Positions 3,001 to 6,000 are shown, numbered from the stretch's first letter. The stretch: 10,261 nt of DNA from an uncultured Dehalococcoidia bacterium (GCA_950072105.1 CATMOE010000094.1:1-10261), one strand, 5' to 3'. Numbers are program-made.

Positions 3001-6000
3001 CGATCTGCTGCTGTGACTGGGCGGTTAGATCGAAGGCGATCAGGCCGGGGAATTGAACGACCCATCGGTCCTTGACCACGGTGACCTCTCCACCGGAGTC
3101 CTGGGCCAAGGCCGCCGGTGGAGATTGCAGCGCGATAACGGCCAGCGCCGCCATAAGCCACAGCGTCAGGAACAGGCCTGTCCGTGGCAGCCTCTGCAAT
3201 AACCAACGTGTGAACGTGGAGAACATCAAGGCATTCCTTAGCAACTATTATAACTTGAATCGGCTGCGGCTGACCGTGGGTTATTGTTTAGTAGTACATG
3301 TGTTCTATATAATGCTAGCCCGGCTGAGGTGGGGCCGAGCTTTCAGCCGTCAGCCGTCAGGGGTTACGAAGAGGTCAGATAGTTGGTTGCTGTGGAGGAA
3401 ATCCCCCCAACCTCCCTTTACGAAAGGGGGGCTATAAAGAGGTTTGGTGCCGGTGCTTAGATACGACCACAACTTAAAGCAAGTGGCGCGTGGCTTGCGT
3501 AGCGGGATGACCCGTAGCGAGCAGATGTTGTGGCCGCGATTGCGCGGGAGGCAGATTCAAGGCGTTCAGTTTTACCGGCAGAAGCCCATTGGTGCATACA
3601 TTTTGGACTTTTACGCGCCTAAAGCAAAGTTGGTGGTGGAATTAGATGGACTGCAACATCTGGAATTAGAGCATGGGGAGAATGATGCAAGGCGAGATGC
3701 GTACCTGGCGGGCGCGGGGCTAAAAGTGCTGCGTTTTAGCAACACACAGGTAATCCAAGAACTCGATGAGCTAGTGAATCTGATCGCTAATGCTCTTCCA
3801 GAACGAACGCGCCCATCTCCCCATTTCGTAGAGGTAACCCTGCTTCCCCCCTTTCGTAAAGGGGGGCCAGGGGGGATTTCCCACCCCTAACATGAACATC
3901 GCTTGCGTACTTATCACCCACCTTCCGGTGAAAGCGGAGCAGCGCCGGGACCCGGCGCTGCTGGGGCGGCCGGTGGTTATTACCGAGAGCTTCGGCTCCA
4001 AGCAGGTAGTCTTGGACAGTTCTCCAGAGGCTCGGGGAGTTACCGCCGGGATGTCCCTCCAAGAAGCCGTGTCCCGGAGCAAGGATACAGTTTTGCTCCG
4101 CGCCGACGAGCCCTATTACGACTCGGTTTTCACCGAGATGCTCACTTCTCTGGAGGGAAGGAGCCCCCTGGTGGAAAAGGCTGATTTGGGCTGCGCCTAC
4201 GTGGGGTTGGATGGGCTGGAAGCCATGTATGGTGGCGAAGCCAGGCTCATAACATCCTTGCTCCAAGCGGTGCCTCACCAGTTCAATCCCCGTATCGGCG
4301 TGGCCACGGGGAAATTCCCGGCCTACGTCGCCGCGGTAACCAGCAGTGGCGGACGGGCCAGCAAAGCGCCGGATGACGTGGCCGGGTTCCTGAAGGAGTT
4401 TTCCATAGACCTGCTGCCTCTGTCGTGGCAAAACAAGACCCGGTTGCACCACTTCGGGTTGCACACCTTGGGGCAACTGGCCGCCCTGCCGGCAGGCTCC
4501 ATCCAGGCCCAGCTAAGGGCCGAGGGAAGCCGGGCTTGGGCGCTGGCCAAGGGCATCGATCCCAGTCCGCTGGCATCCTGGCAGCACGAGGAAGTCGTCG
4601 CGGAGTTTCTCACCTTCCCTTCGCCCACCGTCACCCAGCACGCCATCCTAACGGCCTTGGCAACGTTGCTTGGCAGGGCTTTCGTTCGCCCGGAGATCAA
4701 GGGCCGGTACGTTCGCACCGCTACCATTGAGAGTCGCATCGTCCGGCACACTCCATGGGTCAAGCACTTCCCCTTCAAGGAGTCGGTGGGCAGCAAGGAA
4801 AGAGCCCTGTTCTCCCTGAAAAGCCGGTTGGACAACCTGCAACTGCCCGGCCCTTTGGAGGACATGAAGCTAACCCTGGGCGGGATCACCGGCGAGTCGG
4901 GCATCCAGTCCAGTCTTTTCTCGGATGTCCGCAAACGAGAGCAACTCAAGGAAATGATGCGGCAACTGGAAGTCCTCTTGGGTTGTAAGCCCCCCATATA
5001 CCAGATGAAGGAAGTGGAACCTTGGTCCAGAATCCCCGAGAGGCGGCAAGCTCTAGTCCTATTCGATCCCTAAACCTGCCTGCTCCTATACAGGTTGAAG
5101 AGGATGCCCATCAACGGCCACTGGCTATCAGCCTGCGGCGCCGCAGGCTGGGGGTAGCCTCGGTAGACGACCTGTGGGAGATCGACGAAGAGTGGTGGCG
5201 GGAGAATCCAATCGTCCGGAGATATTACCAATTGACCACCGAAGATGGCAGGCCCATGACCATCTTTCGGGACCTCGTTTCCGGGGAATGGTACCGGCAG
5301 GGAGGGTGAGGGGGACCGAGCTATCAGCGGTCAGCGGGGCGAAATCCCCCCAACCCCCCTTTACGAAAGGGGGGCGGAACGGGTCCCTCCCACTTGTGGA
5401 GGGTGAGGGGCAAATCAACTAAGGAGGTGAAAGTTGGCGGGGCCGTGTGGGACCACCTGGAGAGATTCTTTGGGTGGCTGGGTGGATGTGATATGACGCG
5501 ACTAACGCATGAACTCAAGCTACGCCGAACTGCATTGCCACAGCAATTACTCATTCCAGGAGGGGGCCTCATCGGTTGAGGACCTGCTGTTTCGCGCCAA
5601 GGATCTGGGCTACCGGGCTTTGGCCCTTACCGACCACGACAATCTGTGCGGGGCCATGCACTTCGCCCAGGTTGCCCGGACCCTGGAGATTCAAACCATC
5701 ACCGGAGCGGAGATCACCCTCGATGACGGCTCCCACCTCACCCTGCTGGCCGAGACGCAGCAAGGGTACAGCAACCTGTGCAACATCATCTCCTACTCCT
5801 ACATATCCGGCGGCCGCAAAAACCCGGCCTTCGACATCAAGCACTTGTCCGAGATGGCTCAAGGACTCATTCTGCTTACCGGATGCCGTCAGGGACAGAT
5901 CCCCAGCCTGGTAACGGAGGGTCGCCACCGGGAGGCCGAGGACCTGTTGCGGCAGTACCTAGACTGGTTCGGCACGGCCAACGTCTTCGTGGAACTGCAA

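Follow-up and report, generated by a model that had tools for sequence, protein, structure and literature searches.

The DNA stretch analysed here (the window) comprises 10,261 nt of contig CATMOE010000094.1 from assembly GCA_950072105.1, an uncultured Dehalococcoidia bacterium (Chloroflexota) whose genome bin of 4.08 Mb is 92% complete; metagenomes carrying matching sequence are of marine and vent origin. All features are given on the plus strand unless indicated otherwise. An SOS (LexA)-type box of the form G[AT]AC-N4-GTTC with a TATAAT -10 hexamer downstream (3294..3313) was located by pattern and by the box positions in relatives. Behind it lies gene g3534 (3444..3890; PF04480, E 3.9e-33), encoding a predicted DUF559 nuclease (YcjD-like, Vsr/EDxHD fold) with GTG 3453 as probable start codon. 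The left end of the gene is occupied by a unit of repeat family D (3397..3433), a C-run tail followed by a hairpin with the tail pointing away from the gene, and the right end by a second, inverted D unit (3846..3882, minus strand), in which the hairpin precedes a G-run tail and through which the final codons of g3534 run. Hairpin inspection and triad scoring thus recovered a family-D copy at each end, as the genome-wide survey's note had stated. From inspection of the relatives L005 and L006, which retain an inward-pointing unit at the matching place, we infer a probable decayed inner D unit at 3811..3834. The operon's first conserved gene, an ImuB-like Y-family polymerase (3892..5073; PF00817), is followed by a small conserved ORF between imuB and dnaE2 (5022..5309), present in nearly all relatives and lacking a Pfam match at the thresholds used, by a solo family-D unit recognised by comparison with relatives (slot 2; 5341..5375), and by the gene for error-prone DNA polymerase III alpha (dnaE2/ImuC; 5509..8832; profile search). 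Comparison with L004, L005 and L006 revealed three repeat units (E, D and box) that have entered dnaE2 without loss of frame where the HhH domain starts; they span about 61 codons (approximately 7951..8133). This insert is missing in L005 and L006, and in L004 it is altered with the frame kept. Repeat inspection identified an extra solo D unit behind a luciferase-like gene (10118..10154), and directly after it a 17-nt tandem repeat (10159-10261) reaches the contig end.

The box at 3294..3313 is the promoter of the imuB-dnaE2 operon, today standing ahead of the DUF559 gene. In 19 of 25 relative loci without DUF559 at this place the box lies 37-167 bases before imuB, and in 5 of 6 loci with DUF559 it lies 564-644 bases before imuB, just ahead of the gene and its two ends, which may together form one cassette. 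Because the box sits ahead of the cassette and is imuB-proximal where DUF559 is absent, the cassette is an insertion behind the operon's promoter. At the diverged sites, inspection by eye revealed no target-site duplication beside cassettes or repeat insertions and no site cleanly lacking the cassette, among relatives as distant as these (about 90-95% identity in the flanks), and no joint skipping g3534 was found in reads and contigs. We take the G[AT]AC-N4-GTTC box to be a presumptive LexA site, weakly supported within this genome. The pattern used gave no box in the region upstream of the genome's own lexA, the box of recA carries one mismatch and was recognised by eye only, and the literature matches listed contained nothing relevant on a published Dehalococcoides LexA box. 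RNA-library contigs cover g3534 and show neither strand nor ends.

The g3534 ORF specifies a free-standing protein of 148 aa in which DUF559 covers residues 10-118. Conservation is 98-100% at E26, D55, E66, D68, G69, H72, D81 and R84, positions that correspond to the EDxHD residues of Vsr and I-Bth0305I; E26, D55, E66, D68, H72, D81 and R84 are intact in g3534. Around the F-x-R-Q motif the residues are clade-specific: Q42, Y44 and K47 in the D clade, K, R and H in the box clade. With a dN/dS of 0.13-0.19 versus relatives, the predicted catalytic residues are intact under purifying selection. The structure model (pLDDT 84.8) has 3HRL as nearest fold and the catalytic domain of I-Bth0305I as second nearest (TM 0.60, E 1.6e-5), E. 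coli Vsr being a weaker match (E 0.047); further structural matches were RAP-type domains in mitoribosomes. A GIY-YIG domain was not found in g3534 by profile search, nor an HUH Y1 transposase domain by profile and structure search, and the locus has neither an intron or intein setting nor a separate N-terminal DNA-binding domain. DUF559 domains also occur within ORFs of more than 300 aa at 17 loci, with repeat-coded linkers in the ORFs inspected. Neighbours of DUF559 loci were scanned in 100 of 446 extracted ORFs (cut to 320 aa, E 1e-12) and proved highly diverse: no transposase family recurred (one rve integrase among the 100), and a C5 cytosine methyltransferase was found neither among the 100 nor within the window. 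DUF559 is rare on plasmids (19 of 72,556 records) and phages (3 of 50,697), and Caulobacteraceae hold up to 7 copies per genome. A general link of DUF559 to SOS or repair genes was rejected, and since the neighbours are so diverse, the SOS setting of g3534 is local rather than a family rule.

A search of the genome revealed two DUF559 genes, g3534 and g149 (C1:176582-176896), the latter behind a uvrB-like gene. The hairpins claimed earlier for both sides of these genes were seen directly: each side has a hairpin of pyrimidine arm and purine arm plus a C-run or G-run tail, with the two ends inverted. In the whole genome 7 of 3366 ORFs have a repeat on both sides, the same family occurring twice only at g3534; the patterns used for this count missed g149, whose ends were shown separately. 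Neither g3534 end is called as an intrinsic terminator in a scan of 3200-5600, and this role of the ends was rejected.

Relatives' loci were fetched with g3534 (65), g149 (50) and E. coli YcjD (80) as queries, and the framing count leaves out 10 contig-edge loci and 2 without HMM match. The note had taken its control from this genome's genes; we compared each DUF559 gene with the other ORFs of the same loci and found both sides framed in 107 of 184 DUF559 loci versus 8 of 745 ORFs, where in L004 the second DUF559 copy was scored and second copies may be present among the framed control ORFs. By query, the values were 46/62 for g3534 (control ORFs 7/319), 29/45 for g149 (0/138) and 32/77 for YcjD (1/288). 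At least one side was framed in 176 of the 184 loci, and windows slid along the same loci were framed on both sides in 3 of 3009 positions. Framing by chance from dense repeats was rejected on the strength of the 7/3366 framed ORFs and these per-locus controls. Three sets that were not used in tuning the detector gave similar pictures: Chloroflexota loci chosen by Pfam score (both sides 15/27, at least one side 23/27, slid windows 0/104), a fourth scan (21/41, 34/41 and 0/149, with no unit on either side at 7 of the 41 loci) and Caulobacteraceae loci (27/32, 32/32 and 0/125). Among close relatives 15 of 16 loci were framed, several of which repeat loci counted already. The ends point inward at 72 loci and outward at 15, the outward group including g3534 and g149, and E. 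coli ycjD has TM units downstream only. For an LTR-like model, the arrangement of doublet copies around the gene was direct in 4 and mirror in 3 of the only 7 scorable loci.

Hairpins with pyrimidine-arm/purine-arm polarity number 178 in this genome and those of reverse polarity 58, and the D-stem pattern has 144 matches versus 0 in the shuffled genome. Unit counts by pattern were D 65, A 46, box 13, B 9 and E 9; the rank order of the families with 84, 80 and 29 copies noted before was therefore retained and the numbers were not, under differing definitions. Eleven of the 46 A units contain an additional inner hairpin, and 11 of 117 tailed hairpins lie well within long ORFs. The box family of this genome resembles the E. 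coli repeat TM(ECO), and D is a separate sequence family; the TM(ECO) consensus does not describe the g3534 ends, a box-type stem being present in none of the 67 flanks collected with g3534. In two other Chloroflexota genomes (G085 and G157) the reversed D-stem pattern that served as a control has 461 and 1575 matches and corresponds to a very abundant repeat of opposite polarity.

According to Holder et al. (2015, PMC4666352), TM(ECO) combines a pyrimidine arm and a purine arm with a third, mirror strand. The units described here conform to a class II triad test of the same layout (Y arm, R arm, mirror third strand; G:G, A:A/T): 7 of 8 triads were reached by 38/39 D, 38/40 A, 11/11 B, 12/14 box and 9/13 E units, and the G strand of the left-end unit of g3534 is compatible with a class II intrastrand triplex by triad scoring. 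The fraction of triads formed by stems with their own tails was 0.95 for A, 0.94 for B, 0.97 for D and 0.91 for box, compared with 0.70-0.85 when tails from other families were swapped in. Only family E lacked this specificity, its own tails scoring 0.87 and those of D up to 0.89. Because in four of five families the tails best mirror the stem of their own family, the feature conserved despite changing letters is the three-strand geometry. The ends are hairpins, as described before, and by their triad scores not plain ones: we classify the units as hairpin-plus-mirror-tail motifs of the BoxC/TM type, that is, predicted intrastrand triplex motifs. A stable triplex in vivo is not supported according to the available part of the study of Holder et al., which also states that a purine-motif triplex cannot form in RNA (PMC4666352).

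The type of repeat follows the clade of the DUF559 protein. The D-stem pattern was found in 60 of the 67 flanks collected with g3534 and in none of the 81 collected with YcjD; the box-stem pattern, in reverse, occurs in 0/67 and 63/81. On a tree of 213 DUF559 cores (109 columns, 107 of 209 forks open, loci seeded by three queries), repeat type changes 11 times, versus a mean of 63 and a minimum of 54 in 300 within-phylum shuffles; this test used 159 rows with type and phylum from 15 phyla, excluded 46 of the 213 rows that had no label or a mixed one, and relied on labels that are patterns written after inspection of the flanks. D ends accompany one protein group across 10 phyla. Genes that share a genome offer a cleaner test than the tree. 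In the relative G251, the slot preceding imuB holds a D-clade gene framed by D ends, and the slot preceding dnaE2 an A-clade gene framed by A/B ends; L006 carries genes of these two clades in the reverse slot order, each with its own ends, and in both cases the pair lies 1.5-2 kb apart within one operon. Likewise, L052 and L083, which belong to the same genome by accession, show the D and box types. As the gene and its ends are linked, the tree pattern demonstrates co-inheritance and not recognition.

In the genome studied here, g3534 has family-D ends and g149 family-E ends; in relatives, a third DUF559 clade has A/B units on its flanks. The search of this assembly (92% complete) recovered no A-clade DUF559, the partner of the second-largest family A, and with two DUF559 genes in all no partner for the B and box families either. 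In genome G258 D units are present, yet the single DUF559 there has A-like ends. A single nuclease for all repeat families is unsupported, each clade keeping its own ends in a shared operon. Judged from gene and flank sequences, the pairing is family-specific, g3534 with D and g149 with E. The earlier proposal of DUF559 as the cognate nuclease of these repeats is thus partly supported, by framing, clade match and abundance, and is corrected in that each DUF559 goes with a repeat family of its own. If the 85-nt element mentioned alongside that proposal is an A-type unit with an extra hairpin, which is a guess, g3534 is probably not its partner.

Abundance was compared across 248 Chloroflexota genomes using two repeat patterns, leaving out the genome studied here (G000) and two unpublished ones. 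The median number of matches was 34.5 in 70 DUF559-positive and 2 in 178 DUF559-negative genomes, at least 10 matches were present in 55/70 versus 46/178, and in each of the 20 families containing both kinds of genome the DUF559-positive members had the higher median (permutation p 0.0002). The counted matches overlap and take in the gene flanks, related genomes are not independent of each other, and bins are incomplete. Among 65 genomes without any repeat match, 2 have a DUF559 gene. Many repeat-rich Chloroflexota genomes have no detected DUF559.

The repeat-bearing sites are subject to turnover. Depending on the relative, slot 2 holds a DUF559 cassette, a gene of the GIY-YIG or four-helix-bundle type, or just a few bases, and the solo D unit at 5341..5375 stands at the slot of the A-clade gene. 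Compared with G251, dS is 0.76 for g3534 and 0.16 for the adjacent imuB, which suggests that the g3534 allele was replaced in place. In a comparison with 2.23 Mb of the 3.1-Mb G251, orthologous gaps of at least 120 nt were less than 60% identical in 18 of 36 cases with repeats versus 60 of 362 without (p 1.5e-5), and at some orthologous gaps the repeat families are swapped between the two genomes. IS1595-type elements, which insert in the loops of family-D hairpins with duplications of 8-9 bp (G000:C11:55477-55837; L285:19106-19640; L021:1101-3508; L013:6392), account for part of this gap instability. Transposase-less versions measure 360 nt in this genome and 534 nt in G251, each site being empty in the other genome, and L021 contains a full IS1595 with a passenger gene. 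The duplications of hairpin cores at C11 and L285 were considered as a new cassette system and rejected, because they have IS1595-type ends and a full IS1595 occupies the same position in L021.

Other small genes also occur at these sites. The GIY-YIG gene is Ssn-like (L244:3130-3504), and at some orthologous sites in G251 SRM-like units, recognised by eye, stand in for A units. The four-helix-bundle genes in slot 2 of L234 and L238 are of the 23S rRNA IVP type and framed by runs of TCAGCNN-type heptamers, short remnants of which lie in both slots of the window (3345-3362 and 5317-5336), with a related site at G000:C86:3027-3199; this looks like a third gene-plus-repeat partnership in the same slots. 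Where this genome has an A-family element (G000:C4:44931-45151), G251 carries a pair that is hicAB-like by eye (L287), beside which a decayed A end persists.

The reading we favour, with a probability of roughly 0.6, is that DUF559 acts as a nickase on single-stranded, folded DNA of its cognate repeat family and that host repair then spreads, swaps and deletes units and cassettes. DUF559 would be a single-domain endonuclease of the Vsr/EDxHD fold recognising and nicking its own BoxC/TM family, most likely on the G-rich strand when this is single-stranded and folded into a hairpin with mirror tail, a purine-motif triplex. Nicks would start host repair or recombination in which repeat units are copied, exchanged or lost; the same process may move the cassette between repeat-bearing slots, and repeats would outlast the loss of their cognate nuclease. 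In this genome g3534 would serve family D and g149 family E, and g3534, by virtue of its local placement, would be made from the SOS-like imuB-dnaE2 promoter when single-stranded DNA is plentiful. Framing, three-strand geometry, clade-specific ends, repeat abundance and slot turnover speak for the nuclease reading; repeat-rich DUF559-negative genomes, orphan A, B and box units, family E without specificity and variable orientation speak against it. A farther-reaching version, in which every DUF559 clade recognises a three-strand code of its own, BoxC/TM units arise, are exchanged and disappear through the nicks, repeat-bearing slots are the landing sites of cassettes and the SOS promoter was taken over here, is tentative and we would sooner doubt than adopt it.

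The main rival is a linked passenger without action on the repeats: host recombination, or some other element, would move gene and ends jointly, and the protein may then serve as a repair or defence nuclease maintained on different grounds. Linkage alone yields clade-specific ends, the slots also accept the GIY-YIG gene of L244, the IVP-type four-helix bundle of L234 and the hicAB-like pair, IS1595-type elements target D loops, and in many repeat-rich genomes no DUF559 was detected. This explanation leaves unaccounted for, however, that a precise three-strand geometry is kept per clade across many phyla amid unrelated neighbours, that genome-wide repeats rise with the gene within families and that the single rve integrase offers no recurrent mobile element as a carrier; we consider it unlikely.

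Clearly less probable still is very-short-patch repair of T:G mismatches, with hairpins that tune expression or are cut by accident as mismatch-like structures. The catalytic residues are of Vsr type, both genes have repair genes as neighbours, imuB following g3534 and the uvrB-like gene preceding g149, and scmA mutants of Caulobacter need VsrA for their SOS response (PMC12907096, in the part available). Against mismatch repair stand the lack of C5 cytosine methyltransferases among the 100 neighbours, a fold nearer to I-Bth0305I than to E. coli Vsr and the up to seven copies per Caulobacteraceae genome; it also leaves clade-specific ends unexplained, and the hairpins are not terminator-like. 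The least probable proposal, that transcripts, the operon mRNA of the gene itself among them, are cut or processed by DUF559 at the hairpins and shaped in this way, could draw on Vsr-like folds acting on RNA in eukaryotes (the RAP-type mitoribosome matches, FASTKD4), on a gene that is mostly inside operons and on the RNA-library contigs; it is weakened by units in both orientations around the gene and by a conserved mirror tail that fits a purine-motif triplex, impossible in RNA as far as the available part of PMC4666352 states.

By the features tested, DUF559 is not a member of the Ssn, RAYT, canonical Vsr or EDxHD homing endonuclease groups; on present evidence, and by analogy, its system would work like Ssn-SRM and RAYT-REP. 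RAYT (TnpA-REP) is a chromosomal gene framed by REP/REPIN repeats, which also occur as singlets and inverted doublets, and its product, an HUH (Y1) enzyme, can both cleave and rejoin DNA. DUF559 shares with it the chromosomal location within repeats and the rarity on plasmids and phages; as it has no HUH domain, its spread would need host repair. The CIR repeats of Caulobacter are GANTC-bearing two-arm elements of about 110 bp, and a review on them names no protein partner in its accessible part. The Caulobacter VsrA (CCNA_02930) is likewise a DUF559 protein, unlinked to a methyltransferase gene, induced by DNA damage and itself a cause of DNA damage in vivo; it differs in being interpreted as a mismatch-repair enzyme in the available sections of Matthey et al. 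(2026, PMC12907096), the main text of which contains neither 'CIR' nor 'palindrom'. As with DUF559, an Ssn gene is a small single-domain nuclease gene between its own repeats, its homologues have their own variants and the repeats are abundant in carriers; SsnA cuts the flanking repeat as single-stranded DNA (Chenal et al. 2025, PMC11893778, from the part available). Ssn is a GIY-YIG enzyme, whereas DUF559 has the Vsr/EDxHD fold, SRMs are hairpins to which DUF559 units add the mirror third strand, and the activity demonstrated for Ssn (PMC11893778) is predicted for DUF559. I-Bth0305I exemplifies selfish use of the Vsr fold in the available text of Taylor et al. (2011, PMC3239194) and shares the catalytic fold and the E-D-x-H-D residues; unlike it, DUF559 has no intron, intein or extra DNA-binding domain, and its presumed target flanks its own gene and is scattered genome-wide.

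The closest repeats are BoxC/PIT/TM(ECO), known since the 1990s, present in more than 260 genomes and characteristic of unstable loci; the accessible part of PMC4666352 names no enzyme, protein partner or route of spread and states that mobility genes were not found near TM(ECO), and 'endonuclease' and 'ycjD' have 0 occurrences in its main text. Shared features are the pyrimidine arm, purine arm, short loop and mirror G-rich third strand, the mostly intergenic location in unstable surroundings (PMC4666352, same part) and an E. coli DUF559 gene, ycjD, with a TM unit downstream; the difference is that five sequence families exist here, each tied to a DUF559 clade where the gene was found. E. coli ycjD stands where other lineages carry eefRABCD (PMC12817139), and the available parts of PMC1189080 and PMC12817139 mention no repeat link for it. 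A published link between DUF559 and repeats was absent among the matches listed, and an earlier mention, in the original CIR description or in the supplements of the Holder 2015 and Ssn papers, is possible. If the nuclease reading is true, BoxC/PIT/TM repeats gain a cognate nuclease that is present as YcjD in E. coli K-12, a strain with 23 TM sites, and hence bench-testable, and DUF559 gains a function as the third enzyme fold in nuclease-repeat partnerships after RAYT and Ssn. It would also allow the DNA damage that VsrA causes in Caulobacter to be interpreted differently and possibly provide a set of structure-specific single-strand nucleases with differing specificities.

Two further arrangements were observed among the DUF559 loci. 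Three DUF559 genes of one genome (L399, L402 and L403) have no TM units and are followed instead by a repeat of the type GCGCCAAA..TTTGGCGC. Tandem or near-tandem duplicate DUF559 cassettes, each with its own ends, are present at L031:5442-6350 and at L017:3084 and 6021.
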